Part shown: piece after piece, positions 1-55,575 of the stretch | Position numbering within the stretch: the stretch's first letter is position 1 | Layout of the letters: each line of letters opens with the position of its first letter | NCBI GenBank assembly: GCA_003971905.1 | Contig: RSEE01000072.1 | Coordinates: 62,001-126,000, forward strand | Direction: 5' to 3' | DNA from: Moniliella sp. 'wahieum' | Lineage: Eukaryota | Length of the DNA stretch: 64,000 bases | The notes under the pieces: generated by a model | Told to the model about the DNA's origin: nothing | The model's database searches: none | What the model saw: only the letters and a program-made list of their open reading frames with translations | Made by a program: the position numbers and the translations under genes

Positions 1-1400
1 ATACAATGACCATCATGATGATGGCTCAGGATGATGCATGATCTCATCTGAAATCCTGACATCCTGAGATCTGAGAGATCCGACGCCAACGGGGGCGGAT
101 ATGAGATCTGAGATCGAGATGCGCCGACCGGGACAGGGACCCGGGACTAGGAACCAAGGCTGCTCAACCACTCAGTTCTCAGTTCTCAGATCTCAGTACT
201 CAAAAAGCACAGGAGAAGCACGGTAGGGTCAGATCTCAGAGGGGGCATGGGAACAAGACGGTGGGATTGGACTCAAGTGGGCGTTGCACGACCGCGCTCG
301 TCAACGCCCCCGCCACATCAGGGGCGGAAGGCCACTGTGGTGGTACTGATGTCTGATATATGATACGGAGAGTGTGCCTCAATCCCACCGCCACTGGCAA
401 CGCCTGAATAAGCCAAGGACAGAACGGAGAGTTTTGGATCGAGAGCACGACCCCGCGTCGGAGGGCTGATGTACGCCAAAAATGCGCCATAATACGATCG
501 GGGGCGCAAGAAAAGAGACATTTTTTTTCGTTAACCAACTAGCGTTGCAGCTTCCCGCTTCAAGCTCTTCCCACTGACGCACTTACGCCTACTTGAGCTT
601 ATAGAAGAGCAAACTGGCTTATCAAGGTTCAACCGCTATCGTCTGTCGCACAGGAGAAACATAGATGAGCGCGGCGTCGACTATCGACTATCGATGATCG
701 ATTATCGATTGCCCAGCGCCCCTATTACAAGATCCTGCCCATAGGTACCATACTTAGCTTGAAGCTTGATGTGCCGGGGCTGCTGCCCCCTGTGTTAATG
801 CAAGCGATTGGTGATGCTGATGAGGCCTGAGGGTGGTGGTGGGCAATTTAATACAGCGCCCCGCGGGGGCGCAAGGTCGGATGGACAAGTGTGCAACCGA
901 GGCCTGGACGCCTGACGTTTTCGCCTCGGGGGCTGAGTCTCAGGGTGATGAGCTTGTGGCTTGAAGGAATGGACTGAGGCGGGGATGTAGGGCGGGATGC
1001 GGGGGATGCGGGGGATGCGGGGGAGCGGGGAAGGCAGTGGAGAATACACAGGCCCATGATGCATGATCCCTCTCAGTGGGGCAGATGCACATGCGATGGT
1101 TGGGTCCGGGATGTACGGGAAAACGCACAGACGAGCCAGGGAAAGGAGGAAGAAGGTTCCGACGACCAGGGGGAATACACGCTCCGCACCTTCGTCGCCT
1201 CTCCCCACCGATGGATGAGGTGAGGCAATTGAACCGAGCGCCATCCTAGATCTACGACAAGGGCGAGTTGGTACGCAAGTAGTTACCAGTCACTAGTTAC
1301 TGGTTACTGGCTACTGGTTACTGGTTACAGTCCAGCATTAGAGTAAAATATGGAATGGAATGAGACCTAGAGAGGCTGAGGGTTGAAGCTGTATGAGTGG

Positions 1401-3578
1401 CTAGACGGCCCACTTGCTTGCGCGTGTACCTGTTGCGCGCGGTGCCGATGAAGAGGAGGACGAAGATGAGGATGTGGGTGGGGGATGCTTGCCCCCGCGT
1501 TTGGTGGGACGAGAAGTGGGGCGAGAAGCGGGACGAGAAGCGGCGGGGGCGGCCGGGGCGTGTTTAGACGCAGATGGTAGCGAGTGCGAAGGGGCATTCG
1601 ACGCCAAAGGCAACACAGGCGAAAATACTAGCTCAAACGAAGCTACCAACGGAGACAAGTCCATTGGCATAGCACGAGGAATGTCCTGTTTAGTCGCATG
1701 GGGTTGAAACGCAATACGCGTCTGCGCATCGTACTGCACCACCAACAGTTTCCCATTCCCCGTCGGTCGAGGTAACACTTTTGCTAAACTCTCCAGAAAC
1801 GCCGTGAAGAGTAACATTGCTTGTGCCCGATCGTCCGCTTGGCCCGGGCCAGGGAACAAAGGTGCAGCCCCGATCGTCTTGAGTACCGTCCGGAGTTTTT
1901 TACGCTGCGGTTTGCTCATTAGTGCTCGTCCAATTCGTTCGTCTAGTCGTTGCCGTCCCCGCGGCCCAAAATACGTCGCGTCCAACTTGATCTCCCCTGG
2001 TTGCGGCACGAGGCACGGTGGTGAGTCTGCGATAGGGAGTAATATGGGCTCCACCTCTCTTTCTCTTTCTCCTTCCGGTTCTGCATTGCCTCGTCGTCAT
2101 CGTCGTCGTCATGATGAATCGAGAAAAATAACTTCCGTCCCGCTCGTTTGGACGGGGGCGAGAATCGACATCGTCAGGTCGCGAACGTTTGTTGGATATG
2201 GCGGAGGATTCGAATGCGGTGCAGGGGGTGGTGGTGGCGGAGGCGGAGGGGGGAAAGTCGAGGTGGTACGTCCGGCAATGGGCGGTGCACCAGTTCTATG
2301 TTTATCGCGAGATCGTTTGGGGAGGGGAGCGATTGCGCGTTGTGGCCGTTCCAACTGCGGTAGGGAAGGAGCAAATGTCGATGTAGAAGGGACGGAAGGT
2401 GGGTGAGGCGCAGGAGACGTGCGGGGGGGCACACTCGCGTTGAACGCACCCGACAAGGCGGGAGGGGACAAGAGCGGATCCAGGTCCGCCATCTCGGAAT
2501 CCTCATCGTCCAGAATCTCAATGACAGCATGCGCATCTTGGTTGCTATCGGTGCAGAGGCGCCATCCTTGGCCCTTGGTAGGTGGTGGCGTCGATCCAGT
2601 CGCCGAACCAGGAGGAGCTACTGAAGACACACCAAATCGGAGCGACCATTGGTCCACGAGGTGTTGTGCAAAGCTACGCACGTCCATCTTGGTCCGAGCC
2701 AACTGGTCTTGGATGTCAAACGTAGTGACCCCCTCGGCCTCGGCAGAGACACTGGCATTGACATCGTGTGTAAACAGCGCCACGGGATATTCCTCTTGAA
2801 TCGAGGCGGCGAGACGAACAATTTGATCATCGTTGCTCTGGTGGATTCGGCGGGGGTCAGTTCTCGGTGCTCAGTACCCAACTACTCCCCATACACAACA
2901 CAAACAAAAGACAGCAAGCTGGGGGGGAACGGGAGGGGACATACAAGAGATCGTTCGCGCTCGAGGGCATGCGCAATAGTTTGGACATGCAAGGACCAGC
3001 AGGCCTTGTCGACCTGCTGGCCGTTGGGCGGATGGCCTGGTTCTGCCACCGCAAGGCGGAGAGGACGAATCGACTACCGGCCTGGGCTTCGAGCGCACGC
3101 CGGACCGCAGCCCCGCCCTCGCGTCGCTGGGACTTGAGGTGGTCCAGCTCCTTGATGACGACACGAGGCACGAGGAGCGCAACGAGCGCAGCCGTCTTGC
3201 GGCCAGCGACGACAGCGCGGTTGTGGGTGAGGAGCACGTCGAGGAGCACGTGGAGCAGCTTGAGGCAGGGGGGCTCCATGAGCACGTTGGTGTCCAGGAG
3301 AAAGTAGGTGTGCAGGCGGCCGTCGCCGGCGGCAGGGAGCGTGGGCACCACGCCACGCGCCGAGGCTGCCGCGCCGGCAGAGGGGCGGCCGGGTCCCAGG
3401 ACGGGGGGGGCGTCGGGGGAAGCGTCGGGGGCAGCGTCGGGGACAGCGTCGGGGGCAGTGTCCATGAGGTGCTCGTGCTCCCACCCGGTGGCGGTGGCGG
3501 TCCAGCGCACAGGCCCCGCCGCGGGCGGATGGCCAGCGGCGTGGGCGCGTGCGTTGGCCCAGTCGGGTAGGTGGCCAT
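1401..3578 (-). CDS. PIN-domain (SWT1/PIN_4-like) RNA endonuclease; frameshifted, probable intron near 2885-2945
   Basis: PIN motifs in order across frames: YFLLDTNVLM, LLVPRVVIKELDHLK, SNDDQIVRLAA...VALFTHDVNASVSAEAEG. These are followed by a Pro-rich linker and a helical C-terminal ORF (1401-2054). Confidence 0.75.
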
Positions 3579-3786
3579 GGATTTAGGTAACAGAGTGCGT
3601 CCTGCCAGAATTTACTCCCATGGCGGTCATTAAGCAGCTAACATTCACACACACTGGACAGCGGAGGCCGCAACCCTAGCCGCCCCGCGTGCGTTCCGCC
3701 GGCGCAGTTCCGCCTGTCATTTAACACGCGGCGCGCAGCCCTGCGCTCCCTCGGCGTCCTCCCCTCCCCTCCTCTGCGCGCCCAGC

Positions 3787-5036
3787 ATGGTCAGCACGCG
3801 AGCCGCCACCGCCGCCGCGCGAGCCATCACCTCCACCTCCATCCCCACCCCCACCACCACCAGCACCACCACCACCACACCACCACGCCCACGCCGCCAG
3901 CCCGCCGCACGCCGCAAGGCCGCCCCCCGACTCTGCCCGCCAATGCCCGCGCCAAGAAGGCCAAGACCGCCCTGCGCCGGCCCACCCCCGCTCCTGCTCC
4001 CGGAGCTTCTGCCCGAGGCCACCATCGCACAGAACACGACCGTGCCTGCGCCCCGCCTGCCCTTTGACCTCCAGCACGCCCTTGCCCATCTGACCCAGGC
4101 CGACGCGCGCTTTGCCAAGCTCCTCGCCGGCACCACCCTCAAACCCTTTACCGACATGGACCAGGGCAAGGGTCCGAGATCAATGTGTACAAGTACGGGC
4201 CATTCCATCTTGGGCCAGCAGATCAGTTGAAAGCAGCACACACGAAGTGTCATATACAAGTTTGCCGCGTCTTCACCCCTCCCTCCCGGCCGATCCCGAC
4301 TTTGATACGGCGTCCCAAACGGGAAGACTGGCCGTGGCCGACGCCGCACCAGGTCTTTACGCGCCAAGGAGGAGGAGTTGCGTGCGGCCGGCCTGAGCGG
4401 ACAAAAAGTCAAGTACATCCGTGACGTTTCGCTTCATTTTGCCGATGGCCGCTTGGTGGCGGCTGAAATGCTGCGCTTACCGGAAGAAGAGGCGGTCAAG
4501 GCACTGGTTCAAATCAAAGGCGTAGGCATCTGGACCGCAGCAGAAATGCTTCTGATTTCGCGCTGCGTTTGCCTAACTTGCTCCCCGTTGGCGATTGGGC
4601 ATCCAGCGCGGCATGCTCCACTTCTTTACCGCCACGTCCCTGGACGAGATGGTGGTGCACCCCGGCAAGCTCCGCGCAGCCACTTCGCCCCAGAAAAAGA
4701 AGACAACCAAGACGAAGCCGATGGCCGATCTGGCGTCTCAACCGCAACAAGAACTTGGATCCCAAGAACTCAGCGTCGAGGCTACATTGGATGCAAGTGA
4801 GAAGGTTGAGGGGACATCGACCTACATGCCCATCAACCACCTCTCTCGCCAAGTAGTGCTGCCCGCCCTTTACCCCTCTGCCCGAGGGGATGACACTGAC
4901 GATGCTCAAGAGCCGCGCAAACGGCAACAAAGTCAAGGGACAGTACCTCACACCCGAGGAGATGCGCAAACTAGCTCAGCCTTGGGAACCCTACCGTAGC
5001 GTGGGCGCGTACTTGATGTACGCACTCAAAGATTGA
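3787..5036 (+). CDS. MAG1: DNA-3-methyladenine glycosylase (AlkA/HhH-GPD family); frameshifted
   Basis: SILGQQIS, LRAAGLSGQKVKYIRD, HhH motif LVQIKGVGIWTA, LLPVGD.GIQRG, C-terminal PYRSVGAYLMY; stop TGA at 5034-5036. Confidence 0.85.
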
Positions 5037-5376
5037 CCCCCCCCCTCCCCCCTCCCTCCCGCAGCGCGGTAGCCTCCTTTTTTCTCTGTTTGTTTTTGGC
5101 ACACAAAAAGACCGATTTGGCAATGGAACGGATAATCTCCAGTCGCTCGTCGTATACTAATGGTGCGCGCTTGGGCTGGCGAACAAAATCAAATCGTTCC
5201 CATCCGATCCGAAGGGGAGCAGGTGCGTACGCGACGCGTTTCTACTGAGCCGCTGATTGTTTCCTGGGCGGGAGTCCCGAGGGGGCCGTCTTGGGGCGGC
5301 TTTCTCGTTGATGTATCCAATGCGGACAGTAGTTAGGCTCTCGCCTGGGTAGAGCAGAGCGCTGCAGATTGAAGTG

Positions 5377-9185: not shown

Positions 9186-11268
9186 CTCGGGGAGGGTGGG
9201 GGTTCTTTTGTGTTGGAGGAGGGCGATGCACGAGAGACGGAGGCACAAATGAGCTGGGAAGAATGGTGGACACTCCGTGCGGGAAGATGGTGTGGAGGGG
9301 TTAAGGAAAAAGGCGGAGAGGGGGGACGTGCTAGTGAGCTCACTAGTAGTAGTAGTGAGCTCCTCACCCTCCACAAGGCTTTTCCTTTTCCGTTTGACCC
9401 TCTTTTCGTCCTTCTAACGCCATGTATGCCATGCTTGGCGCGAGTTACTTTGCGCTCTAAGATCTAATCTCAGTGGTGCTGGACTCGCTCCGCCGAGAAA
9501 GCGAGCAGCGCTGTACGTGATTAATTCAGGATTGGTTCTAATTCTCCATTCTCAATGCGAACATCCTCCGCCTCGCATCATGCATCATGCATCATGCATC
9601 ATGCATCAATAGCCTCTCTGAAAAGGCCTGCACCATGTCACGTGGCATCCCAATACGCCCGTAGGCAAAAACACCATTGCGCCCGCACGTAGAGATGGAG
9701 CCCAACGTTGAGCGCGCGTTGAGCACGGCGAGCGGGGGGGGTAGGGGGGCTTAGCGCTTATTCGCGTTCGTGTCGGGCGGACTGGGTGCCAGGGTTTTTT
9801 TCCGCTTCCCCGCACGAAGTCTGAGACGGCACAAGGGAAGAGAGCGCTGGGGCCAGCGCCACAAAGTAGGTATTGCTTTGATGTCGATGGATGATCGATG
9901 ATATATATGCTGTAGAGCCCCTGCAACGCGATGACGCGATGACGGATTACCGTTTTATGGTTTTAACGCTTATCCTGGTGGTTACGCGCCGGTTACGGAA
10001 GAGGGTGGCTGGACTTTTGGTCCAACACTTTGCAAAGCGAGAGCGATCTGGCAGTTAGACTTTGTTCCCACACATAACGCGTAACGCAGGACAGGTATAA
10101 GATCTAAGATCTAAGAGGAGAGCTTGCCTCCCTACGTCACTAACGCCATTGGCGAAGGAGGAAGGGGCGGCAAGACCGGTGAGATGGATGAATTCCATCC
10201 TGTGATTGATCGAAAGAGGTGTTGTCGCGCCGCGGGTATATAGCGCACCCTATATTCGACGCGCGGTTATTAAGCTGCGAGGCGGATCTGACGCGTGACG
10301 CGTGACGGTAGCAATAAGCAGCGGTAACGGGTTAACGCGGTAACGGGTAACGCGTAACGCGTAACGCGTAACCAGTAGCTAGAATAACTGTTGAGCTGGG
10401 TGCTGCTGGGTGGCTCGTGCTTTGGCCAATGTCCCTTCAGTTCCTCCTCAGGCGTAGGAGTTTCGCTGTTTTCCTCTCCTGATTTTCTCTTGTTCTGCCG
10501 CTTAGCCCCTGAGGCCTGATGGCGACTCGCTGCTTGATGTTCCTCTGTAGGCATTGATGGTTGCCACCACCACCACCTGTGCGATTGCATCACCCTCGAG
10601 GACCATCATGCATACATGTCGCAGGACCCAGGTCTCGATCTCATCAGTAACTAGTAACTAGTAACTAGTGATCTAGTAACCGGAAGCGTGTAACGAGGTT
10701 ATGAGTAGCGCGAAGAATGTGTGGCGGTGGCAAAGAGACGGCCGACTTTGTAGAACAGGGAGTAAGCGTAACGGAGAAGGAAAGGGGACGGCGCGCTCAC
10801 GCGGACGAGGAGCGGGCGCTGAGTACTGAGTGCCCCCGGCGGGTGCGGGTACTGCTCCAGCTATAGTAGGCAAGCGATCATCCATTCTACGTCCCATGCA
10901 CACCAGTGTCGCAAGGCTGCGTACGCACCAACTTGGACAGTATAGTATTAACGTGCCCTGAAACCTTCGGGGTTCAGGCTCAGGCGCAACCTGGCGCAAC
11001 CTGAACGTCCTGAACCCTGGAACCCTGAGGGACGGAGAGTTACTAGTTACTAGCTTACTAGTTACCAGTGACATATGTGGCAGCGGAGGACAAACACTGC
11101 CAGAGCTGGGACTGAAGTGGGAGCTTGAGAGGCAGCGTGGCTCGCGAGGGGGGACGCGACTTGTTTGTGAAGAGCTGAGAGAACAAGGATGGATAGAGGG
11201 ACGCGGCTAATTAAAGAAGAGACACTGGGGTTGTTTGTACGGGATGAGTTAGCGACGATTCCGAGGTC

Positions 11269-11310
11269 GTTCCCCCTGTCCCAGCTTAAGCTCTGTCATG
11301 ATATGGATTC
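11269..11310 (+). mobile_element. Very short 5'-truncated 3' end of the CRE-like non-LTR retroelement
   Basis: GTTCCCCCTGTCCCAGCTTAAGCTCTGTCATGATATGGATTC matches the terminus at 11996-12041; degenerate flanking duplication GATTCCGAGGT / GATTCTAGTGGT. Confidence 0.6.
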
Positions 11311-11415
11311 TAGTGGTGCATGTCGCCAAAAAGGACCATAGGGCAAGCCCACGAGACCCATTGCTTATCCTGACAGGGTCCCAAAGGGAAATAACGCGTA
11401 ACATACAATGGACGA

Positions 11416-12044
11416 GGAGGCCACCGGGTCTACGGTCCAGCCCGCCCAGCCACACTTGGCTCTCCTCCATTCCATCGGTCTCGTACCTCCGGCTCACGAC
11501 AAGCACATTGAGGTTGGTCTCCAGCTCCGCACGCTGTGCCGCTCCTCGCGCAGCATGTGCAAGTGCGGCCTCGAGGCGCAGAGCGCGTACCGGAGAGTGG
11601 CGCATGAGAGCATGGCGACGACGCCTTTGGAACGCCGGGAGAAGGAGCTGCTTCGGCTGCTGGAACAAGCAGAATGCGACAAAAAACGCCAAGTACCAGG
11701 GACGCACGCAAGAGCCGTTTTCACCCCTGGTTTTGATGACGCGAGGATACTACGGCACCAAGACAGCGGGCAAGATGTTTGCGCGTTGGAAGGATTTGGC
11801 TACTGAGTCTCAATAGAAATGGTTCCTCGCTCGGATGTCTACCACGTTCATCCGTGTCCACACGCGCTACCTAGGGTACGGGACCGGATGGCGAGCACCT
11901 GAGGGTCTGATATCCTGGCGATCCCCCTGGTTCCTTAACATTGGTAGCGCTACCAAGTAACTCCCGCAAGATGAACGGTTCGGTTTAGACACAGCGTTTC
12001 CCTGGCCCAGCCTTAAGCTCTGTCAATGATAGTATGGATGCAGT
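11416..12044 (+). mobile_element. 5'-truncated non-LTR retrotransposon, restriction-like endonuclease (CRE/Cnl1-like) C-terminus plus 3' UTR
   Basis: Translation LLEQAECDK(fs)NAKYQG...FSPLVLMTRGYYGTKT...FARWKDL...FLARMSTTFIRVHTR fits the RLE tail pattern E..K..KY...F.PLV...G...W...S...R. Target-site duplication AATGGACGA at 11407-11415 and 12045-12053; removing the insert restores repeat A. Confidence 0.7.
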
Positions 12045-13148
12045 AATGGACGAAGGATTCCGGGGCAGGGGAGATCAAGGGGGATGGTTGCCGCTATAGG
12101 GCAACCTACTTAAGACAAATAAAGGCAAACGGGCAGGGGGACCCAACGAAAGACACTCCTATAATAAACCGTGGGTCGGGCTCCCAGTTCGGGGCTCGCC
12201 CATGATGCATGACACCCCTCCATGCCATTTGTTGTCGGGCCGAGAACCCCCTGACAGTGGCCTGGGATTCTAGGGCTGTGCCTACGTGCAGTGGAGTTTG
12301 CGGATATTAGGCGGAAGGTTTTTGGAATACAAACAAGACGGACACTCGCTTTTCTTGGCCTTCCTTCACCTTTTCGTCTTATTGCTCTAGACTCCTCCGG
12401 TCTTCTCTTCGTCCTTTTTGTCAACGACGAACCCTTGCGGCTTCACTCCTCAAAGAATTGTCCGTTCCCTTCATTCTCCTTAGTTGCTGAGTCTTCGGGG
12501 CCCTGTGGGGTTTAGGCCCCTTACAAAGAAGTCCCAGCGTGAGTAGGACTGCCGGCAGCGTTTCTGCAACTGTGCCATCGACCTGTGGCCCCTCGTCCAA
12601 ACCCAAGAATCGCGCTTTTGTCGTTGTACACACAGAGACATATAGACGAACAGGCCTGTGCTCTGTGATGCCATTGAATCCAAGTTCTAAGTCTACTTTT
12701 CTCACCTTGTGATCTCAAACAAGGCGCGAAAATGGGATACATATCATAAAACCTCCAGCCTCCGCACTGGGTCGTTCGGTCCACAGGGAGAAATTCCGTA
12801 ACATCACTCCAGGGTTTTCAGGGACGTTTTCTGTCCTACCGTTGTGCCCTTGAGGATAACGGTCACAAAAAGATAACCCGCAAAAGAAATGGACAACAAT
12901 GACCACGTGTATCCTCACACGCGCAAGCCCAATACATAACAAAGGGTTGGAAACGGGAGAAGAACCGCCAGCGGGCTCAAAGAGAAAAATGGTGAATCAT
13001 ATCCGAAACAAATGGATGCCGTACGCGAAAGATTCATATACGCATATACTGAGGCGGAGGTGAGAGATGGTATGGCGTCACCCACCTTGTCAAACTCCCT
13101 CCAATCACATGCGGGGGGCGCTGGCGTTGGTGCTCAGTGGTACACACT

Positions 13149-18265: not shown

Positions 18266-18836
18266 GGACAGCACGCTCAACTAACCCTCGACGGTGGCAG
18301 CGACGGGCGCCGACCCAGCCGAGCCCCCACCAGGCCTCGCCCGACCAGACGAGCCAACGCGCCGAGCGTTGATTAATAAAGCACCACCGTTCCGCCCTGC
18401 CCATTCCGCTGCGCTGATGTAATCGGCCCTAACCCGCTTGGTTTGAAATGGATGCGGTTGGTTCTTAGTTACTAATCATCCATCGCCACTCATCGATCAG
18501 ACCAACGGGTTGTGCGGCTTAGATTGTGGCTCCCCTCGGGCTGTCTTCTCGCCCCCAACCACCACCACCATCTCCTGGGGGACGGAGATGTTGGGCCAGG
18601 TAGAGGGTGCAGCAGGCTCTCGCACGCTCTGCCCTCCTCCCGCGCCCCAACCGCCAAGCCCCACCCGAACTTGACGGCTCATCGAGCTCATCCGAGATCT
18701 CTGTACGTTCATGCGTTCAATATTCAACCAGAGGGACCACCCACCTAGCCTACGGCCCAGCTTGCTACCACCGATCCGCCATCCCACCGTAGCCACCGTT
18801 ACGCGTTACGCGTTAACCCGAAAGGCCCTGATCGAT

Positions 18837-18985
18837 GATTTCCTGGCGATTCCCCTGGTACCCTAAGCGGGATTGGCGCTAAGGCTTAGCGCTTAGCGCC
18901 AACAAGCAACACACGCCAATTGAACGGGCCCGTCTAGGCGTAGCGTTTCGTTGTCCCAGCCTTAAGGATGTCAATGATATATGGT
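18837..18985 (+). mobile_element. Degenerate ~150-bp 3' end of the CRE-like retroelement
   Basis: TCCTGGCGATTCCCCTGG...TGAACGG...AGCGTTTC..TGTCCCAGCCTTAAG..TGTCAATGATA aligns to 11910-12040. Confidence 0.65.
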
Positions 18986-21216
18986 TAGTACTTCGTACTT
19001 AGTGGGTGTATCCTTGAGTACCGGGGCACGTACCCTACCAGACCCTACCTAGAAGTCCTCGCCACATGCCCATGTCACAGCGGCTGTAAGATAAGACGTA
19101 AGAAGTAACAATACGAGTGATACACGTGTGGGGTATGCTGCGGAGACAATCGATAGTCAATAATCGGTGAATCATCGATTGTCGATAGTCGAAGATAGAT
19201 GGTCGAGTCAAGAAGGAAGATGGAGTCCTCGAGGGAGGAACACTGATTTTGAGATTCGAACCTTGGAAAAAATGTTGAGGTTCTTACCCGTTTTTTTGCG
19301 CTCTTCTTTCCTACAGTACACAGGCAGGGACCTGTTGAAACCGTTAGGTGACTTACATACCGTCTTCTGCACTGCTAGTAGACAGCCTGCTTCCTCCGCG
19401 CTTCCTCATATATTCGGATCTTAGTTGGGAGATCTCTGAATAGCTGGTGTCGTCCAGCGTTACTACCTCCTCTTTCTTCCTCATCGGCACCGTGGTACAG
19501 CGTCGTAGGGAGGTTTGGGGGGGGGAGGTTGGGGTAGTTCTTATAGCACCTGAGAAGCACTTGGTACTTGGTGGGATTCCAAATTTCAGGCCAACACACA
19601 GTTGTCCAGGAACACTTGGGTCCTCGCGCCTACGTATGTTGGGCATCCCTCATCGGCCTTATCGAATACCCATATCGCTGCTGGCCTACGATGGCCAGGG
19701 CTGGCCAGGGCTGGCCCCTTCGATCCAATTCCAAACCCAGCAAGCCTCGATCCAGCCGCCACGAGCTCCACCAGCTCCACATCCCCCACAGCTTCAAAGC
19801 TTCAAGCTTCAAGCTTCCAGCTTCAAGCGAGCCAAGCCGGGTACTAACCATATAAGTGCGCGTTACGCGTCAGGAAGTATTATTTAGGCAGTGGCCAAGC
19901 AGTGGTTAAGCAGAGCAGAACACGGCACAAGCCCAGCGCCCAGCATCCTTCCAATTCTTAGATCTTACGCGTTACGTCTCTGCCAAGTAGCTCGTAAGAA
20001 TTTTTACATCGTTCTCCACCCACGTAGGTGATGGTCACCTAGGCCACTCACGCCACCCTAGCCAGCCTAACTGGCTTATCACCGCGTCTCCAAGATCTCA
20101 GATCTCACCGGCTCACCGTCCTTGCCATCCTGCATACGGGCGTACTCTCACTGGGTCTCGATTGCACAGAGTACTGATGCACTGATGCACTGACGCAGTG
20201 TGACATGGGTGCCGAACGCGCCGAACGTTGAACGTATTGGACGTTAGTACTTAGTGAACGTACGTTGGACGTTGGACGCACTGACGAACGTACATTCCAG
20301 CCCCCCTTTTGTCCCTCCCCCCCCTTCCCTTCAGAGCTTCAAGCTTCAAGCTTCAAGTTGAAGCTTCAAGCTTCAAGCTTCAGGGCCGCAGGCCTCAGGG
20401 CAGGAATATTCTTTAGCTTCTGAAGCTCATGTGCAATGCAATACACCATCATCGACACATCTGCCTGCTCTTGGATCTTGAACACGTTCACTACGTACGT
20501 CACTAGTTAGCGCTCACGCGCTCACGCTCTGGCGCCTAGGGGCCTGGCACGCCACGAACGCTCTATGCCCTTGGTCCCTCGCGCGAGCGAGCCGGTACGT
20601 TCGGTGTCGATATATGTACTCAGTAACTCAGTACTCAGACTCAGTATTGAGATCATTAATTCATTGAGAATTGAGATCGATCATTGAGACTCAGTACTCA
20701 GTACTCAATTCTGAGACTGAATACCTCAGTGGTCAAGAATGGATGATGATCGATAAATCGTGGGGGGGCCGCGTGTCTACTATTTAGCTGCGGCTGCGGA
20801 TGGACGGCCTGCCACGCAAGTCCGATGCTTGAGATGGTTGAATACGGTGAGTACGTCAGTACTCAGACTGAGTACGTCCACCGAGACCAATGATTTAAGG
20901 ATTCATGATGAAATCTTGCGGCTTTTTGGCTCCAGGAAACACACTGGAGATGGCAACGCGCAAGCCGTCTTCCTCGGTTTCCAATCGCCACACCACCACA
21001 TCTTCTCTTCGTCTCGCTCAGTCCGGTTCTCGTGGACTTCTTTCGTGGTTGGCCTTGGTTTATTTGCTTGGGAGGCTTGGCAGCCTAGTCCGTTTTGGCG
21101 GTCTGCTCTTTTCCTAGCATCCCCACAGCACCTACCTCGTTTTGGTTCCCCGTTGATCGTGTGTTCTCTCTCTCCTGTTGGGGGGTCGGTCTGAACTCTG
21201 AACTGGTTGGGTAGTG

Positions 21217-29607: not shown

Positions 29608-30951
29608 GGGAACGAGTGAGCGCGGCTTGGGGGACGAGCGGCAGTGGATGGGAAGGGGCGTCAACCAGGACGCGGTGAGCAGGTGGAGGGGTCAGGGAGG
29701 GGGAGGGCAACTCGCAGAGCTGGTGGTGGGGATGGGGATGGAGACGGTGTCAAGGATCATCGGTCATGGGGGTGCGGTGCCCTTGGGCGATGGACGATGG
29801 CCAAGGAGGCCAAGGCGTTTCGGCTCAGTCTCAGCGCCGAGGCACGACGCGTGACGCAGACGCAGCTGCAGGAACACGGAGGCAACACTGGCCCCATGCG
29901 GGGCGTGGGCGGCGATCAATGCAAATGCAGGACCATTCATGCATGCACATGGCGCTCCCCCAGGCAACGTGCACCGCACCCGGCCAGTGCCTCCGCACCT
30001 TACACCGCCGCCGTGCGGGCGCAGGCAGGCAGGTGGACGCTGGGCGCGGTGGCAGCGCTCTGGAGCCCACCGCGCCCTAACGCCGAGTACGTCAAGCTAA
30101 GCGCTAAAGCGTAACGCCGCCGCCGGCTGGCCGGTGGAGCAGCGCCACAGCGCAGCCCGGGGGCAGTGTTCTGCGCGCGCTGTGGGGTGGCGCTCGGCCC
30201 TCAGGCCCGACGCGTGACGCCTGAGCGCTGCGGAGCTGCCCCAGCGACTGCCGCCGTGCCTGTTGGGCATCATCGATCATCATACTCCCCTCTAGCAGAA
30301 CTGCCATCGACCCTCGACCACCCAGAATATAAATCCCCGGCTTCCCCCCACCGCTCTTCAATCTCATCAAGGAGCCGTAGCGAAGCCCAGCGTTTGCCTG
30401 CCCCCCCTCCCCAAGCAGCCGTAGTAGCCCCCATCGCATCGCCATAACGCGCAACGCGTAAAGGCGGATTGGCAGAACGCGCTGAACCCACAGGTTTGTT
30501 CTAGATCGTGTTTCCCCTTTCGTATAATATGCTCTCAAATCTCAGATCTCTCAGAACTCAAATATCTCTCTTGTCCGTGGGACTAGTGACTAATGACTCA
30601 GCTTGTTTGGTCGATGCTGTTGGACGGAGTGCTAGGGTTCCCCTGTGCGCGGCCCTCCTCAGCTGGTAGGTGATGCTTGCCTAGCCGGGAGGAAGAGTTC
30701 CGATGACAGGTTGCGCACTGCTGCGCACCCTCTGCTCGCGCCATCACCGGTCACCCTCCTCTCTCTCCTGTCATGTGCACGTCATGGGCGGGCGCCGCCA
30801 GGGGGCCCGCCGTGGGGGGGTTAAGAGGTACAATCCCTAGGAGGTCCTAAAGTCGACTCACGGTAGTTAACCGCTTGGGCCGGTTGGTGGTTTCGGAGCT
30901 AGGGACAAGGAGAGGCCTCTCGGCGTACAGCAGAGGCGACTGCGCACTGAG

Positions 30952-31403
30952 TGTGGCAACAAGGCTGCGTAGCACCGGCTAGTTGGGCGGCAGTAACGTG
31001 GCTGAAGTCTTCGGGCTCAGGTACTGGGAAGAGGCAGCGGAGGACCTACGTCGTTGGACTGAGGCTGAGCTGGGACTGGACTAAGACTGGGGGCGCCGTG
31101 ACTGTAGCCAGGATCACACACGGCTGAATGTGGGCTGGACTTGGGCTGGGGCAACTGAGAGCTGACGACCGAGGTTGGAGAAGCAACGAAGAGGAGGAGT
31201 GGCCTATACTCGATTGATCAATTGGCGAGGAGAGGAGGAGCGACGCCAATGGACCGTGGGGGAAAGCCACGAACCAGTGTTACAGACAGGGATTAAAAGG
31301 AAAACAAGGCAACAGCAGAAGAACAGGGAACAGGGGAAAACATTGGAGACGGCTGCCGCACGGGCAGCTTAGAAGGAAAAGGCAAACAGGCATGGGGCGA
31401 CTA
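30952..31403 (+). repeat. Repeat family A, copy 4 (apparently full length)
   Basis: Begins TGTGGCAACAAGGCTGCGTAGCACCGG and ends GGCAAACAGGCATGGGGCGACTA, comparable with GGTAAACAGGCAGGGGGTGACTA at 5805-5827. Confidence 0.7.
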
Positions 31404-32399
31404 GCATCGCAAAACAATGCAAAAGCAGGGAACCACGTCCCTTATCAGATAAAGCAGACGGGCCTTAGCTTGAAGATCGAATCAGATCGCATCTGACCCC
31501 TGACCAACCTGGGACGGGGTTAGGAAGGCAAAGGGAGCACATAATAGGCGCCGCCGGGCAGCCCGGTTTCGCCCGTGACATATCTCCTGTCTGTTTTCCC
31601 TTCAGACGTTGCTTGAAGATCATCCCCGGAGAGGGACCCACCAGCATTCTTTACGAAGCGAATGTCGGTGGGTCCTCTAACTCCCCTAGGGTTGGCTCAC
31701 AGCCTTGAGAGCCATGAGTATGAAGTCTTTCGACTCAGTCGGGGATCACGGTAACGCTTCGACGGTTTAAACGAGCGAGCACCGATGGGTGGGCCACGCC
31801 GACTCGCAGACATACCCCCCACGTTTCCCTTTCCTGCCGGATAGCGTTTAGGGGATTGGCTGATTCGTCTTGTTGTGTGAATTAATTGCATGGTGCACTG
31901 CCATGACAGGCGACCAGTGCCGCCGCAGCAGCAGTGTTTTTATCTTTTCCCTTCGTATGAATATTGGGAGCATAGCTCTTGTGGAAGCTATGCAGTGAAT
32001 ACTATGACTTTACCACTTCCATCTCCAGGTAGCTGCACAATACGTCTGAATGGCGAAACGCTTAAACAACTTGTACTATATGTACGCGTTGTGCCTAATT
32101 AATTTAAAAGGCCGAGTCCCTTCGGGTCGGCTATACAGCTGTGGATGAGCGGCGTGTTGCTTTTACAGTTCCCTCTTTTTTGTTTCACTAGATCCATTTG
32201 TTTCTGAGGGCCAGGGCTCTGAGTTGACCTTCGGGGTCTCAGTGGTTTATATTCCAACTGGCGAAGCTCTCCACTAATCCCTCAGCGTGCCGCGATGGTC
32301 TCTGCAAAGTACTAGAGCCTGCTCCTTCATTTCGTTCCTATCCCTTCGCTTAATAGTACTAGTCGCCATCGATTTCCTATAGGAGCAGTTGACCTATGT

Positions 32400-36200: not shown

Positions 36201-36293
36201 CTATGCCACGGGCGCTGGTGAAAAATTAATATTTCGCTTAGATGACCACATCACCCAAAAATGAGTACATTTTTCCGAATATTACCTTAGGCA

Positions 36294-36523
36294 CTTTGGC
36301 CACATGAGGTTAAGCGCTTTGGCCCAAGAGGTCAAGCCTTTGGCCACATGAGATCAAGCGCTTTGGCCACATGAGATCAAGCGCTTTGACCACATGCGTT
36401 CAATGGCTTTGGCCACATGCGCTCAATGGCTTTGGCCACATGCGTTCAAGCGCTTTGGCCACATGCGCTCAATGGCTTTGGCCAATACGCTCAAGCCCTT
36501 AGCCAAATGTGCCCAAACGCTTA
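36294..36523. repeat. 23-bp minisatellite, about 10 copies
   Basis: Head-to-tail CTTTGGCCACATG(A/C)G(A/T/C)TCAA(GC/TG)G with no spacers. Confidence 0.9.
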
Positions 36524-37797
36524 GCTGTTGATTGGATGCGTGCTTGTAGGCTCTCCAACCGGCTGGCTGGCATCGATCTAGAACTACTAGATTTATAGGC
36601 AGGGTAGTATTTTTAGGTATAGAATGCATTCGAAGATCGTGGGAAGCGATGACACGGCAACCACGGTTAGGTGTGATGTCAGACGGAAGCACCACAACAT
36701 AGTATAGAGCAGCGAGCGGTACAGAAAGTGGCAGGTTAGTGTGAGGGGAGCGCGCACTAGGGAGACGCTGACCAAGTCAGCAGCAGCATAGGGTTAGCGA
36801 GAGACACAGAAGATGTGCGACGGACTCAGGGGTCAGGCGATCAAGACGGCCAGTAGCGAGGGCAAGCGGATGAAGTCAGAATGTACACTGGTAGGGCGAA
36901 CAAGGTTAGGAACAGAACAGCGCTGGCATATAACAGAGAAGGGACGTACGACGGCGAAAACAGGTCAGATGAGTCGAGGCGAACAGACGAGACGAACCAA
37001 CCGTGGATTCCGTGCACAGCAGCTGGGCAGACAGTGTCAATGGGGCAGCCTAATCCAAGCGCGAAGTACGGGGGACGTACGATGGCAAGGCAGACCAGCC
37101 AAGCGAGAGGACCACAGGCGAGGCAAAAAAAAGGAACCAGACGGACAAGGCCGAAGGTGAGCGAAACGGTGCATGCACGTCATGCATGCGACCCACAAGG
37201 TCAGAGAAGGTGGGGAATGCGGAGGAAGCGGGCACGTACGATGGCGCTGCGGATCAGGTGGAGAGGGCAAGATGGCCTGCTAGGGGGAGTCTGTGTACGG
37301 AGGTCAGCAGCAGAGCGCAGGCGGGCAAGAGAACAGTACGACAGAAGCAATTCAGACAGTGAGAGGGCGACGGGGCGAGAGGCAGAGGGGTCGTCCAACA
37401 GCGATACTGACGAGGCGAGGAGCGAGGAGGTAGCAGGAGAGGGAATGGAGACGTACGGCAGCAATGCAGACCAGGCGAGGAGAACCAAGCGATGGGGGGG
37501 GGAGGAGGAAGGCGGGCAGTAAGAAGGCAGGCAGCAACGATGGTGATGTTGATGTCCAGGGGAAGAAGATGGTGCTGTTGCGCCGTGGCACAGGCATCTG
37601 CGATGTTGGCTGCAGAGATGGGATACTGGTTGCTACGGGCGCAATGAGAGGGGCGGTGGTGAGAGACGACAGGATGCAACCACAGAGGAGCAGGAGTTTA
37701 AAAGAGGCGCGTGTGGCGCAGCCAATCTGTGCGCACAGGCCATCTGGGCTACGCCAGGGGCCTATAGGTAAGCTATTGTATCTGTCTAACGCCTCAA

Positions 37798-40700
37798 CAC
37801 TATAGCGGCCCCTGCAGCAGTGTTCGAGGGTCTAATCATCAGAGCGCCATTTTGACTTTGCCTATTTGCGACTTGCTGTAGTAGTTGTCTGTTGCGACGG
37901 TGACTGGCTTCACCGAACGCGGCGCACTTGCGGCCTCTCTAGCCCCGAGACTCCAAGGGCTCCCCGAAGATTGCCGATGCGCGCGTAAGTCAACGACTAG
38001 TAGCCTTGTCCAGTAGCCCTCGTCCAGCTTCCTACCACCAACGCTTATCTCTCGCCCGCAATCGATCGCCTACGCTACTGTTCCAAACGCTTCAGCATCC
38101 ATTGCGGTCTCCATAGCCGGGGTGAATCGCTATACAGGTCACGTTTATCCTCACTTGAGCTATACTAATAGTGATTAGTGACTAGTGTGACCTATACGGT
38201 GTTACATCTTACATCAAAGTCAAGGCGATAGCCCCTGGTCGAGGTCAAGGAGCTCCGATGTTGTAACCATTCCATTTAGCTTTTGTGTTGGCTTTGTCCA
38301 TGATCCGCAGCCCTAAGATAATAGCCTCTGTTGCTCTTTCATGCACCCTTGTATTAGGCGTGTCGTTGGCTGGCGTATTCGACCACCACACTCCCAACAC
38401 TATATAGTGCTACCGCATCACCCATCAGGGTGGCCATCTGGACTGCGCCACTCTTATCTTCAGATAGGGATCATCGATCACGAATGTAATACGCCTTGGA
38501 AGAGCATCAAATAAGCGGGAGAGCGTGCGTCTCTGGGAGAGGGGGCAAGTTTTAAGGTTAGAGGGGGGCGCGATCGTCTGCCGGACCTGGGACAAAAAAA
38601 GCACCCACCAATGCATATCATGTGTACAACCCATCTCGCCCGTCCTTTTACCAAGTCGCCACCGCCATGTTTCGACGTCGCGGCTCACCAAAATGCCGAC
38701 CGATGGAACGAGCCGCACACGTGCACAATAGGACAGACACATCTGCTGTACCTTTTCCCGCGGCCTGGTCCACGGTGAAGCAGGACGAGAGGTTGCTGTA
38801 CCAGTTCCTGCTTGCCCGGTTCGACCGATGTCCGGTTTCATGCACTCAAGCACACGAAGGTGCGCAGGTACAGCCACAACGTGGTACTGGGTGCGAGGAT
38901 GGGGGCCAGTCATGCCATTGACGAGGTGGCCGAAGATGCGAGCATGCCCCAGCCACCTGACGCATGCTCGCCTCTTCTCCTGCTTCCGTGCCTCCTCACC
39001 TGTAGACAGTACACCATGGCCGAGGACGAGTTACGCCAGACGCAGACCAGTGTTTCCTGCGGGCCGAATCTCCATCTCCTCCTGGCGCATACGTCTGATA
39101 CGCTCTAATTGTTCGGCCCTCTCCAGAACACGGACGCTGCCAGATTCAAGGGACGCGTGAAGCACATCTGTGTGCGTCCGTTGCCCATTGCAACTTCCAG
39201 AACCTCCCACGTGATACCTTGTACAACGTCATGGTCGCTGTAACAGTCGGGGCTAACGAGGGAGACCAAAGTCCTGTCAGAGGGGGGGAAAGGCAAGATC
39301 GTTCGTGGGAGGAAACAGAAGGCATCAGGCAGAGAACAGAAGCAAAAGGGAAGGGAAGAGCGAGAGACACAGGATGCGGAATTGGAAATTGGAGCGAGCT
39401 TAGTCATTCGGTGACAGTCGCCGAGAAGATTCTACACCACTCTTCACCGGGGTACGATGTGTCTAGTGACGGCTCGTATATGGCTCGGCTGCGGCTCCTC
39501 CTGGGGTGCTGGAGCAAAAGGGGAGGATGAGCCCGACTACGACTCTGATGGCATGGCTATTCCACGAGTAGTGCTGGCCCCAGCCAATAACATGGTTGCA
39601 ACGAACGGTGCCATGCACCTGTGGGACAAGCGCGCCAAGAAGAGACACCTTCTGCCGTAGTCGCTGTGGGGGGGGGGCAACAATGACGACTCTTCGGACA
39701 GTGATATTAGTGATTGATGCGAGCATCAAATGGACATATGCGTTGCGCGATGAGGATGAGTATAGGTTTGGTGTCAGTAGTCAGTCGTCAGTAGCCAGGC
39801 CATAGGGTGGTGCGCATCCCGGACCCATCAGCCGGAACCTCTCGAGACGTGAGATGGGGCGATGGGCTGCCCTTTGATATGATGCGCATGCGCACATAAA
39901 AGCTTCTTTGCCGGCAAACGTGCCAGGTGACGGATGACTGTCATGCGTCCCACGCGCAGGGGCATGGCCGAAGGGAAGGGGCGGTTATGGAGCAAGAGGC
40001 CAGACGGTGAGGCGTGGGTTGCAGCCCCAAATGGATATCGCCACAATGGTCGGATCTCTGCCAGGTACCTCCCCAGCCCCACTCCGCTTATCCAGCCCAT
40101 CTACCCATTTTCCAATCCCGCCATGACCCATGTTTCAATTTTTCACACCCGCCCGTGGCATTTTATACTACTACTCATTCTAGCACCATCGAATGCAGTG
40201 CAATCGTCTTCGAGGGTACTTTTTCGCATTGCGAGGGTCAATATGGAGTTGGGGCTTGCCATAGAGAGGTCTTCGGACGGTGTTTCTTTAATTTTTACCT
40301 CTGTCACTGAGTGTGGTGCTTTTTTTCGGCGGCGGGGTTGATCCCGATCTGGCTCCACGAGTCGCTGTCAGCGTCATGTTGCCCACGACGGAAAGATAGG
40401 CGTGGCAATGCCAGCAGGTGATCAGGTTCGCCGAGGTACATGTGGATTGGGGGATCGCACGACCGGTGCTTTATCATCGGCTGGGGTCACTTATGTCGTC
40501 AGCTCGTGAATTCGATCAGATCCCATCTCGTCCCGTGTGGTTTTTCAATGAAATCGTCCATGAAGTCATAAACCATTGCCTTGGGGGACCGGGACTGGGG
40601 ATATTAGTGGCATATTGGAGCGGATGGACGGGTTCGAGAACATGAGCTGAACAATGCGGTCGGCCGAAGTGCAATGCACGTCGGATCCTGAAAAAAACTG

Positions 40701-42680: not shown

Positions 42681-43163
42681 CGACTTGGGGAGAACTCAGC
42701 GATCTATGGATCAGCTGCCAAGCAGCCTTCAGACAAAGGCGTGAGGGCAAAGCCGTGAGCCACAAGGATGGATGCGAGCGGAAGAGATGGAGGTGCGCGG
42801 AGTTATTTTGATCGGACTGATGTAGAGGAATGCTTCTCGTATAGATCTTAGATCTTAGCGGCGCACCAATTCGCTGCGCCACAACGGCGACTGCTAACCG
42901 AATGGGAACGCACCAGAGTTGCGGCAACGGCACGCCTTCATCAGGGGTGTTCGCCACAACAAATAAGGCCTAAGGGGCCACTATGATAATGATGAAGCGC
43001 ACGCACGGTTGGTATGTATAGGCCACGTGGCCACTTTTACCTCTTTCCGCTTCACCGCCCCACCACCTCTATCCCACGGGGGGCGTTTCTGTCACCAGCT
43101 GCGGAAACACACCGCTACTTCTTCCCGTTGGTTGCCTCCAGAGTACAACCACTCCTCCTGCCC

Positions 43164-48734: not shown

Positions 48735-50654
48735 GGCGAATTGGGGGGGTGCTGTTGGTAACACGCGAGTGGTGCTGGTGGGGTGGGGATGGAGGGAACG
48801 GGGGACGAGGCAGATCAGTGGGTCTCTTATACGCGGACGGCGTAGTGGATGCGATCGCCGCTGGTGTAGATGTGAAGGCTGCTTAGTGCGTATTGCTTGC
48901 TCCTGCTGGCCATGAAGCCCATGAAGCCCACAGGGCCCTGAGGTGCCCAAAAGTAACTGATGGGGGTGGGTCGACCTGCACTGAGACTGGCGCCGTGCCC
49001 CACCCGAGGTGTAGTTTAATTTTGGTTTGAGATGGGCGGTGCAGCACAGGGCCAGTGTGTAGCATCGAGGGCTTGTCCAGCGCTGGCGCCATGCGGGCGC
49101 AAGTTGTGAGCGCATCGGCATCGACCTTGCGAATTCATGTACTCGCCGCCGTCCCCCTCAAACTGACTTCCGCCGCTGTTCTTGCGGCCCAATGCCTGCA
49201 GGGGCTGGACGGTTGCAAACGCCCAGCTGGGCTGAGGATGTGACGTTCAGGTGCTCAGCCTCGGGCCTCAGTCCAGCGCCACTCCTAGACGCTCAGGCAC
49301 TCCTGCCACATCATGTGGACGGTGTAGAGAGGACCACGGCGCGCATATTTGGGTCCCAGCACAGTCCTCAACGGCCTCAACAGCGCCACTATCGGTCATT
49401 CTCAGGAGGTCCGAAACGCCAATCCAAATCCAGTAGCCCCTAGCCTCACAAGTTCTTAGGTTCTTAGGTCTTAGGCCCTTAGCCTTGGCGCATTGGTCCT
49501 CGGCCACAACGTCGCAACGTTCAAGTTGAACGTTGAACGTTGAGTTCAACGTTATTCAACGTTAAAGCTGTAACATCCGGGACTCAGAGATTCGTCACCG
49601 GTCACCAAGGATGGTGTCCTGAGGCCTGACGCCACTCAATATTCAATGCATCCCCTGTGCGTCGTTGAGTTTGTTGACGCGCGGGCTGATGATATTGATC
49701 ATCGATGGCGCGTTACGCGTCACATGTCGCAAGGAGATCAAAATAATCAAACTTGGAATCTGTAGCAATGCGTGACACGTGACGAGGGGGTACTCAGTAC
49801 TCAGATCGAATGGAGAGGCCTTGGCCGCAGGGATCAATCTAGTGGTGCATGATGCATGATGCATGATGCATGATGCATGATGCATGATGTATCAAACTCG
49901 GCAAACCACCCAGTCTCGAAGGCGTGTCTCTGGGCACCAGCGAGTCGGCCGAGCCCAGCTTATCCATGGCTTCGATGGCCGATGGTCGATGGTCGATGGA
50001 CGATGGCGGCGCTCTTGGGCCATGCCTGGTTCCGGCTTCTTCCGCAAACTCGGACGAATCCGGCACACGAGTTTGGAGTGTTCAACTTGAACGTTCAAGC
50101 TTCAAGCTTCAAGCTTTGCGTTGAAGCTCCCAAGTAATACGAGACCTGCAGCGCCTATAGTACAGGCTGTCGATAGCGCCCCATGATGGTGTCCAGCACA
50201 TGCGGTGCTGAGCCACTGAGCTCACTTGGTGCCCAGCAACAGATCCATGAAGCTTGTGAGGCATGCACCACCCTGGTCGAAATCCAGGCTGCCGCCTTCC
50301 TCATGCACATGCCGTGCCGTGAGATGATAGATCGATGAACATCATGTAGTTGTCACCATCACCAAAGCCACGCCGCCCACAGCGCTTGCACCAATGGCAA
50401 TAATCAGCTCAATCAAACAATCAATTGAATCAATGCACTCAAAGCTCAATATTCAATTCCCTCAGGCTCACCGTCCTCAACGTTCAAAAGCTCAAGAGCT
50501 CAATCCGCACCCGTTCTCTCTCCTAGACCGCTTTCCCCAGCGCCATCTGCGTCAGCTCTGCGTCACGCGGGCTTAGCGCTAAGCTGGCAAAACAAACAAA
50601 AGGCAGAGAGAAAGAGGTCAGTAGGATTGTAGGAGCAGAAGTTCAGTACAACAA

Positions 50655-50737
50655 GCCTCTTTGGCTCAGTGGTAAAGCATCTCACTAGTAGAAAATCTGG
50701 TATGAGAAGATCGGTCGTTCGATTCGGCCAAGAGGCA
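50655..50737 (+). tRNA. tRNA-Thr (anticodon AGT) with 11-nt intron (50691-50701)
   Basis: Acceptor GCCTCTT/AAGAGGC+A, D-arm GCTCAGTGGTAAAGC, anticodon stem TCTCA/TGAGA, T-loop GTTCGATTC, T-run terminator. Confidence 0.95.
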
Positions 50738-51204
50738 ATTTTTTTCTCCAATGCTGGACCTGGAATGGTTGTGCCCGTTGGCCAAGGTTTAACGTTTACC
50801 TGTTACCCACAGTCCACTGCATTGTGTCCTGTCCAGCCTATGGATATGGGCTACGAAATCCGCGCAATATCAACATTCAACGTTCCACGTTCTACGCCAG
50901 CCACGCTCGCCATCCTCCGGCCTTGCCTGGTGCCCACCCCGTAGAGTCCCATGCAGAGTCCAATGCAATCCAATTTCGAGGCAGCACACGCACGGGAGAT
51001 GGGAAGGGAGGGGGGACAGAAGAGAAGCGAGAACGAGAACAGAACAGAAGAGACCAGAAGGGCCGAGAAGAGAGAGGAGCAAGAGCAGGCACCGACGCAC
51101 CCTAACCGCCCCACCCCGAGCCCACTCTCATCGCATCCAATTGTCTCGTCTCCAAACTGGGCCCAAGTGCAGTGCAGCACGTAGTCCTAGTCCTAGTCCT
51201 AGTC

Positions 51205-54200: not shown

Positions 54201-54456
54201 CCTGGAGGACCTTGTGGACGAGGATGAGCGCTTTGAACGTCTGGATCTCGTCGCCGAGGATAGGCTGGACACGGAGGCCGGTCCAGAAGGAGACGGAGGT
54301 GTGGTAGTCCCAGGTGTAGACGATGCACTTGCGCACATGCTTCTGCTTGGGCGATGTCTCCTCGGGGCTGCACGCTTTCTTGATGTGCATGGCCAGCTCG
54401 GACTCGGCCTTGTCGCGGTCGACGGGCCGGGAGGGCAGGTGGTCCGCGTAGGGCAT
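51205..54456 (-). CDS. SLA2: Endocytic adaptor Sla2/End4 (ANTH, coiled coil, I/LWEQ domain)
   Basis: KACSPEETSPKQKHVRKCIVYTWDY, HKVLQEGHP, long coiled coil, FYKKNNRWTEGLISAA, EMEQQVEVLKLEKEL; intron 53875-53965; frameshifts around 51.9-52.4 kb. Confidence 0.97.
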
Positions 54457-55575
54457 GGCGGGCAGGCGGCGGGGCGAGAGAGATGGGATGGGACGAGATG
54501 GGATGGGAGTAGATGGAGATGGAGGCGCCGCAAGCGCACGGCGGCTGCGCTCCCCGCTGCCTGTCGCTGCGATGCGCAATTGCATGCTCTGAGCGCTGAG
54601 CCTCAGCGCTGAGCTAAGCCCCACCCGCCCAGCTTCCGCCCCACACTGGCGCCCTGCCCGCCCGCGCACTCTGTGCGGTGGCTTGCGCCGTGCGCCCTCC
54701 TCGCTCTGGCTTAGGTCAGCGCACCTGGCCACGTCACCGTCGGCTGACTCGGGTCTCTTCGTTGACGCTCTAGTGTTGCTTGCCCTGGATGGGTTCGATG
54801 CGTAGCTAGCTGGATGAGAGATGGTCGGCAAGGCAGATAGATTCCCAGCCCGTCCCCGGCCATCCAGCGCGCTGCCCCACGCTACCCCACACAACATCCC
54901 GCCGGCACGTCCCCATCAGCATCCCCAATCCCATGTCCCATGTCCCCCCCTCCGTTGCTCATCACCCGGTCACATCCCCGATCACTCGACCAATATCACC
55001 GGGCATGCCAGTGCCTCCTGTTTTGCCGGTTGGCCCGCATCACACTCGATCGAGCCGACAAAGAGAGCTAGTAGGACCGAGTTGGTGCCGTTGAACCAAC
55101 ATTGTCTCATGGACCCCTGTTGACAGCAGTCCTTTGTCCCCGAGGTGTCCAGTCTGCCGTTGTCCCTCCGTCCCCGGGAGCAAGAGACGCCCGGATGGTC
55201 GATGGGATGAGAAGGGTAGGTCGCGACAGTGTCTCCGCGCCTGTGTTAGAGCTTGCTTGTGTGTAGCCATGCACTTGTACCCCCCTCGGTTCAGTTCAAT
55301 ACCGCCTCGTTTCAATGTAGAGCAGTGTCCTATACCCTGTTCACTCCCTGTCTGACGGAGGTGCTGTCAGGCGACGGTCACATCGTCCCCAAGGAAAGCT
55401 CATGCAGCAGTGGTGGGGGGGAGACCGGCCAGAATCCCAGCGACGGATCATCTATATCCTCTAATCTGAATGATCAGAGTAGAGTGTCGTACCCCGACCG
55501 AGTGACAGATGGGATGCTCTGTACCCTAAATTTTTTCTGTCCGGCGTTGCTACCAAAAAAAGGATCTCTAGATCA

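Follow-up and report, generated by a model that had tools for sequence, protein, structure and literature searches.

What kind of process gives many unrelated short tandem arrays the same period and the same symmetry? The question is raised by a 64,000-nt stretch of the Moniliella sp. 'wahieum' genome (RSEE01000072.1, positions 62,001 to 126,000; assembly GCA_003971905.1, 69.5 Mb), hereafter the window, whose intergenic DNA had been described as carrying arrays of 7-bp palindromes centred on TNA. In the original prediction these were ascribed to a symmetric enzyme making 7-nt staggered cuts at nnTNAnn, followed by fill-in. All 17 intervals quoted there contained, within a few bases, one to six perfect xyTNAy'x' heptamers (we write the heptamer as xyTNApq and its inverted complement bases as q'p' and y'x'). 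The rule of a central TNA was confirmed as well: of the 46 exact period-7 runs (two copies or more) in the window, 21 have palindromic units, and all 21 units are TNA-centred. As expected, period 7 stood apart from its neighbours, with palindromic units in 21 of 46 runs compared with 0 of 10 at period 8, 3 of 80 at period 6, and 18 of 100 at period 5. Of 129 pairs of the same TNA triplet spaced 4 bp apart, 77 had a palindromic spacer, whereas the share was 3-11% among the other 15 triplet classes; TNA pairs at this distance with complementary central bases numbered only 6. In the non-gene DNA of the window, TNA + 4-bp palindrome + TNA was observed 76 times, against a mean of 1.62 and a maximum of 5 in 100 first-order Markov simulations. 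The claimed scarcity in coding DNA and in a relic region also held, with 55 of 57 sites in non-gene, non-relic DNA (1162 TNA), one in gene spans (829 TNA), which are rough estimates from open reading frames and Pfam matches, and one in the relic block at 30.8-42.1 kb (592 TNA).

The pattern extends across the genome. One 19-mer array gave 1559 matches and its reversed control none, and an unselected 200 kb of contig C1 contained 194 sites compared with 15, 17, and 6 in the controls, with all 16 possible cores represented. Extrapolation from 264 kb puts the density at roughly 1 scar per kb, or about 60,000 in the assembly. Beyond the source genome, the scar grammar was not seen among the metagenome loci listed: at least 123 of these carry one such 19-mer, and in 269 kb they showed only 28 sites with other cores, at most two per locus.

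The assembly contains a second haplotype (C154 and C123; block identity 86-95%, substitutions 3.6%), and comparing the two haplotypes reveals the event itself. Among 164,828 alignment columns with 5701 substitutions, there were 58 seven-base indels, 17 of which obey a single rule, so that the anticipated exact 7-bp indels at nnTNAnn sites do occur. In the event, xyTNApq becomes either TNApq-q'p'-TNApq or xyTNA-y'x'-xyTNA; five bases are copied and two are inverted. The 17 comprise 13 indels with five duplicated bases, 3 with six, and 1 within an array. Every one begins from a non-palindromic heptamer, and the empty alleles have the same central base as the filled ones, as in AGTAA to AGTAA-CT-AGTAA or TAAGG to TAAGG-CC-TAAGG. 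It is the event that creates the palindrome, out of P-like bases; the target does not have it beforehand. In several haplotype pairs, the unhit allele lacks a TNA through a substitution. A flip of the central base during the event was considered and rejected: haplotype pairs retain that base, and TNA sites show no excess of central transversions. No class comparable to the seven-base scars emerged between the haplotypes at indel lengths of 4-6 or 8-22 bases. Many scars are common to both haplotypes, and the polymorphic ones amount to 1 per 335 substitutions.

Multi-copy sequences give the polarity of the change. At 12 of 15 listed positions, some of which are alleles of one event, copies without the seven bases outnumber copies with them, by up to 17 to 0. 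Since the majority of repeat copies lack the seven bases, the scars are insertions. Both mirror outcomes were found at one site of a CAC-ended element with terminal inverted repeats (TIRs), GATCA-TC-GATCA in the window and TCACG-CG-TCACG in copy L093. Taken together, the counts, the haplotype pairs, and the repeat copies reveal a real, ongoing, and rule-bound insertion process.

The building block of the arrays differs from what had been supposed. The period and the symmetry stand, but the unit is not a whole 7-bp palindrome; it is a 12-base unit of 5+2+5. The lengths of 341 exact tracts were 5 modulo 7 in 122 cases and 0 modulo 7 in 33, and the commonest length was 12 bases (104 of 341, versus 26 tracts of 14 bases). 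The 12-base tracts end flush on one side and 2 bases beyond TNA on the other, in two mirror classes of nearly equal size (59 and 50 of the 341); 14 tracts fall in the full-palindrome class.

Among 27 duplication-plus-inversion geometries scanned without bias in 264 kb, period 7 stood out, with TNA edging the five duplicated bases. We then counted form classes on both strands of 495 kb, naming them by the number of bases gained. The +7 class gave 580 instances at TNA versus 3-57 at other centres; the +9 class, xyTNApq-q'p'-xyTNApq, gave 29 versus 1-8; and the +11 class, which carries inverted bases from both sides, gave 4 (two sites) versus 0-1. No enrichment at TNA was seen for plain 7-bp duplications (80 versus 82-278 at other centres), plain 5-bp duplications (30 versus 72-433), inversions on the TN side, or shorter and longer analogues. 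The +7 form keeps 5 of the 7 bases, whereas the +9 and +11 forms have the full heptamer on both sides; therefore the underlying duplication is 7 bp, most simply a target site duplication (TSD). The joins are even-centred with zero spacer, and TNA retains its central N. All three forms are accounted for if the 4-nt overhangs pqq'p' and y'x'xy are joined while overlapping by 4, 2, or 0 bases.

The scars are best read as transposon-type footprints of unusual density and uniformity. We consider it probable, with moderate confidence, that each marks where a cut-and-paste element generating a 7-bp TSD was excised, its flanks having formed hairpins opened 2 nt past the tip. The products, their polarity, and the target rule are seen directly, and from them we infer the TSD, the hairpins, the nuclease, a growth rule, and a chromatin preference. 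A DDE element would insert at xyTNApq, mostly in open intergenic DNA, and duplicate these 7 bp, as the +9 and +11 forms suggest. Excision would then close each flank as a hairpin at precisely the element boundary, in keeping with the zero-spacer, even-centred inversions. A host nuclease of the Pso2/Artemis type may open the hairpins 2 nt 3' of the tip, leaving the 4-nt 3' overhangs pqq'p' and y'x'xy; Pso2 and Artemis cut hairpins at this position relative to the apex (PMC3299998), and a gene with a DRMBL domain is present in the genome. End joining would mostly retain one overhang and lose the other, giving either mirror form of +7, while rarer joins with a two-base or zero overlap would yield the observed +9 and +11. 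After round one the heptamer is palindromic, and the next round would produce two identical self-complementary overhangs, clean rejoining, and one more unit. Exact regrowth at palindromic heptamers would make arrays grow, with mixed arrays where neighbouring TNAs are hit, and slippage may contribute to long ones. One haplotype difference, an 8-base inversion at C72 position 92748, is as expected of a hairpin opened far from its tip.

Several observations weigh against this excision model. A search of about 810 kb (about 1% of the assembly) turned up no element between 7-bp nnTNAnn duplications; six transposase-like loci had no TIR pair with a 7-bp TSD nearby, and the 165 kb that hold the 17 polymorphic scars showed no nnTNAnn-flanked insertion polymorphism. 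Two patterns joining one such TSD to a CACG end matched 68 and 49 times, but no two matches were spaced at about 4.9 kb. In the multi-copy CAC-ended family, the two copies with both ends read each show a 2-bp TSD, and a second, larger CAC family, around C15, has no TSD in the one copy checked. Most seven-base indels (41 of 58) fall outside the rule, 4 of them built in the same 5+2 manner at CNA or TNC instead. At the site with two mirror outcomes, six unexpanded copies read TGA and three expanded copies TCA, so that none of them is an exact empty allele. The scars were read from assembled contigs alone. Their uniformity and the length of the implied TSD, compared with known families below, count on the same side.

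The fill-in step proposed earlier does not agree with the data. If a palindromic nnTNAnn were cut with a 7-nt stagger, filled in, and bluntly rejoined, the outcome should be plain 7-bp duplications, which are not enriched, and single events of 14 bases instead of 12; moreover, the palindromic arms arise from non-palindromic heptamers (17 of 17 events) and hence cannot be explained by fill-in. As the origin of the arrays it is refuted. It would account for growth of arrays already palindromic, of which there is one +7 difference (window 42842-42858), and may play a part there, but we give fill-in as a whole hardly any weight. The other parts of that proposal, a symmetric enzyme at nnTNAnn, a 7-bp duplication, re-hitting of its own products, and a transposase as the suspect, agree with the data. 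Equally hard to credit is an origin in selected protein-binding sites, such as bZIP-like palindromes multiplied by slippage. The strong intergenic, promoter-side placement would suit them, but all 16 cores occur, each predicted by its flanking bases, events lie within transposon and LINE-like (long interspersed nuclear element) copies, and the haplotypes differ; selection for binding sites is already contradicted as the origin of the scars. Even less credible is an assembly or sequencing artefact. The haplotype alignment does contain 1591 1-bp indels in 165 kb, and an assembly is all that was examined; nevertheless, coding DNA and the relic block are nearly free of scars, many scars are common to both haplotypes, and they follow a flank-templated rule not known from read errors.

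Explanations that retain the event but change its author deserve more consideration. A polymerase that switches template at TNA, or synthesis-dependent end joining there, could do without a transposase, copying five bases in the forward and two in the reverse direction. Errors of synthesis-dependent repair are known to give short direct and inverted templated insertions, and the fact that no enzyme was found counts in favour of such an origin. However, period 7 stands out among the 27 geometries without enriched shorter or longer analogues at TNA, a pair of fixed 4-nt overhangs yields the +7/+9/+11 series, and a loop-free inversion should be impossible for snap-back synthesis, so that we hold a polymerase error to be improbable. 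Somewhat less remote, although still unlikely, is a host-encoded, domesticated transposase-like enzyme that cuts nnTNAnn sites in open chromatin, or transfers strands into them, with a 7-nt stagger, the hairpins being resolved at once with no lasting insertion. Such an enzyme would suit a very uniform product and scars that, at about 1 per kb with no element found, exceed candidate elements by orders of magnitude; TIR-less EnSpm-like genes do lie among host genes at C34 and C17/C62. Against it, H stands where the C17 gene should have its first catalytic D, the C34 gene as assembled contains a frameshift and has no allele among the search matches, and at 17 scars per 5701 substitutions a few active copies could yield the number of scars over long times. 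The more specific form of this idea, in which a domesticated, element-independent EnSpm/RAG-like enzyme acts through hairpins at nnTNAnn as a standing promoter mutator, is a shade less likely again.

Which enzyme might catalyse the excisions that we favour? EnSpm-like DDE transposases (PF02992-like) are the only cut-and-paste class that we detected in the genome, with at least five lineages and CxxC and H motifs; an EnSpm/CMC-like transposase is the most likely catalyst but is only a candidate. The gene at G000:C34:513.4-516.7 kb is TIR-less, a single match frameshifted in the assembly, in which the acidic catalytic positions of the profile (D, D, and E) are all matched. TIR-less genes at C17:555.9-559.2 kb and C62:280-284.5 kb are syntenic alleles. 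These C34 and C17/C62 genes lie among host genes with scar-rich upstream DNA, and, judged from sequence, may possibly be domesticated. EnSpm-like remnants are present at C44/C127 and C131. In the DNA covered at C17/C62, C34, C44/C127, C131, and C15, no TIR pair with a 7-bp TSD occurred, and TIR and TSD scans of the window and of this further DNA returned only array self-matches or noise. The CAC-ended element at window 36207-40157 is non-autonomous, with CACGGGCG ends, a 2-bp TSD, 23-bp subterminal repeats, and dozens of copies; transposase-bearing, apparently autonomous copies of this family appear at C82, C153, C16, C19, C20, and C3. Searches of the genome for five further domains returned nothing, but three of the five also lacked a match in the control and so do not show absence: KDZ (PF18758) gave 0 candidates, with low power and no control match; hAT dimerisation (PF05699) gave 0 matches among 2 candidates, again with low power and control genomes likewise without a match; MULE (PF10551) gave 0 candidates, with a positive control in 3 of 14 genomes and introns that can hide matches; and DDE_Tnp_4 (PF13359) gave 0 candidates and the Plavaka domain no match, both at low power.

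Known systems resemble the scars in part. Transib and RAG leave TSDs of 5 bp; here 5-bp TNA duplications are not enriched and the 7-bp forms are. V(D)J coding joints, Transib, and Muta1 share the short, flank-templated inverted additions, the hairpin at the boundary, and opening by a host nuclease, and flank hairpins are produced by hAT, Transib, RAG, and MULE enzymes, according to PMC5499845. The same source gives a 43+43 nt hairpin for Muta1 and more than 90% precise excision of Muta1 in yeast, whereas the scars have a TNA-centred 7-bp duplication and one dominant outcome, occur about once per kb, and seed tandem arrays. The hAT element Ac/Ds likewise leaves TSD remnants and P nucleotides through hairpin opening and end joining, but according to PMC5873905 its palindrome is odd-centred on the complement of one bordering base, and its footprints include 28 types among 128. 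The scar joins are even-centred with no extra base, so that, with the central N kept, they are not footprints of the Ac/Ds type, and their product is far more uniform. Fungal hAT7 has a TSD of the same length, 7 bp, and Kyakuja (KDZ) elements of Agaricomycotina are basidiomycete elements with 7-bp TSDs (PMC12730594). EnSpm/CACTA and the CMCT clade, the transposase class detected in the genome, are related to Transib/RAG1, and CMCT TSDs are reported to be 2-5 bp (PMC12730594), whereas the scars imply 7 bp. The 3-bp TSD of PIF/Harbinger cannot provide the copied pq or xy bases, and its PF13359 domain had no candidate. None of the families compared, as these sources describe them, unites one dominant product with a hairpin that is even-centred and a TSD that is 7 bp long and centred on TNA. 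We found no description of the scar pattern in the literature covered, with subscription papers outside that coverage.

If the excision model is right, the scars define an even-centred transposition chemistry with a 7-bp TSD. They indicate that short tandem repeats may originate without slippage, in a cycle of breaking and healing that turns the site into a better substrate for exact regrowth. With about 1 scar per kb, and 1 polymorphic scar per 335 substitutions, they are a leading source of 7-bp change beside genes, and they provide a natural genome-wide read-out of hairpin opening and end joining in the overlaps of 4, 2, or 0 bases. Should the enzyme instead be domesticated, it would be a sequence-programmed promoter mutator that generates the tandem targets on which it acts, together with every one of the 16 six-base A-n4-T palindromes.

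Table 1. Scar-related features of the window (window positions unless a contig is named).
Feature	Position	Strand	Details
Footprint cluster 1	31-1329		11 exact tracts and decayed arrays; tract 1055-1067 missing from second haplotype
Footprint cluster 2	9456-11402		Arrays 9575-9608, 10098-10116, 10289-10307, 10347-10372, 10646-10669, 11038-11065
+11 form	9980-9997		GGTTACG twice, flanking CG + CC (two inverted bases per side)
+9 form	11000-11015	+	CCTGAAC-GT-CCTGAAC; full 7-bp duplication, two inverted bases
Footprint cluster 3	18490-20866		Arrays 18797-18815, 18884-18899, 19797-19817, 20335-20382, 20626-20707
+9 form	18677-18692	+	GCTCATC-GA-GCTCATC
Polymorphic single footprint	20244-20255	+	TTAGT-AC-TTAGT; one TTAGT in second haplotype
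Footprint inside CAC-ended TIR element	38469-38480	+	GATCA-TC-GATCA
Array	42842-42858	+	Exceeds second haplotype by one 7-bp unit
Polymorphic single footprint	42964-42975	+	TAAGG-CC-TAAGG; one TAAGG in second haplotype and in paralogue
Footprint cluster 4	49366-50798		Between pyruvate-decarboxylase-like and SLA2-like genes; +9 form at 49366-49381
Longest exact array of window	49846-49889		44 bp; in footprint cluster 4
tRNA gene in footprint cluster 4	50655-50737		ARAGORN: no anticodon called; probably intron-containing
GCTNAGC array	54589-54618		Upstream of SLA2-like gene
Further decayed transposase-like matches	C20:588.9 kb, C98:98.4 kb, C108:90.5 kb, C52:370 kb

The gene content of the window is fungal (OPT transporters, pyruvate decarboxylase-like, SLA2-like), and the best SLA2 match, at 71% identity, groups with Acaromyces ingoldii, which suggests a basidiomycete related to the smuts. 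The window holds a cluster of four genes for OPT oligopeptide transporters, at 6.6-8.9, 13.5-16.4, 22.6-24.5, and 43.0-45.7 kb, with a further copy at C72:161-167 kb, and pyruvate-decarboxylase-like genes have 17 matches in the assembly. Gene copies fall into several levels of identity (about 94%, 85%, and 77%), which suggests a hybrid or polyploid assembly. A partial second copy of the SLA2 5' region at window 55771-56814 is missing from the C123 haplotype and begins where a LINE-like fragment ends.

Window segments at about 11440-12050, 18836-18984, 55561-55770, and 56825-56940 are 5'-truncated 3' ends of an abundant repeat with 663 candidates. The translation of a longer copy, at C15:817.4-818.0 kb, resembles what we take to be the C-terminal endonuclease of a non-LTR (long terminal repeat) retrotransposon. 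A 155-bp inverted pair at 11.8 and 55.7 kb, considered as a miniature inverted-repeat transposable element, was rejected, being the 3' end of this LINE-like repeat. A solo-LTR-like insertion at window positions of about 30770-31585 is missing from the second haplotype, and the allelic block of C154 contains a Ty3-type element with a chromodomain. Intergenic insertions of 0.2-1.2 kb (C154:76.5-76.8, 65.6-66.4, and 72.2-73.4 kb; C72:156.3-156.5 kb) are captured repeat pieces without clear TSDs, which suggests frequent capture at breaks. A transposase-like match on C27 was discarded as glutamate synthase, and the glutamate-synthase-like gene at G000:C27:86.4-91.4 kb (L148) contains an intein-like insert in translations read by eye.

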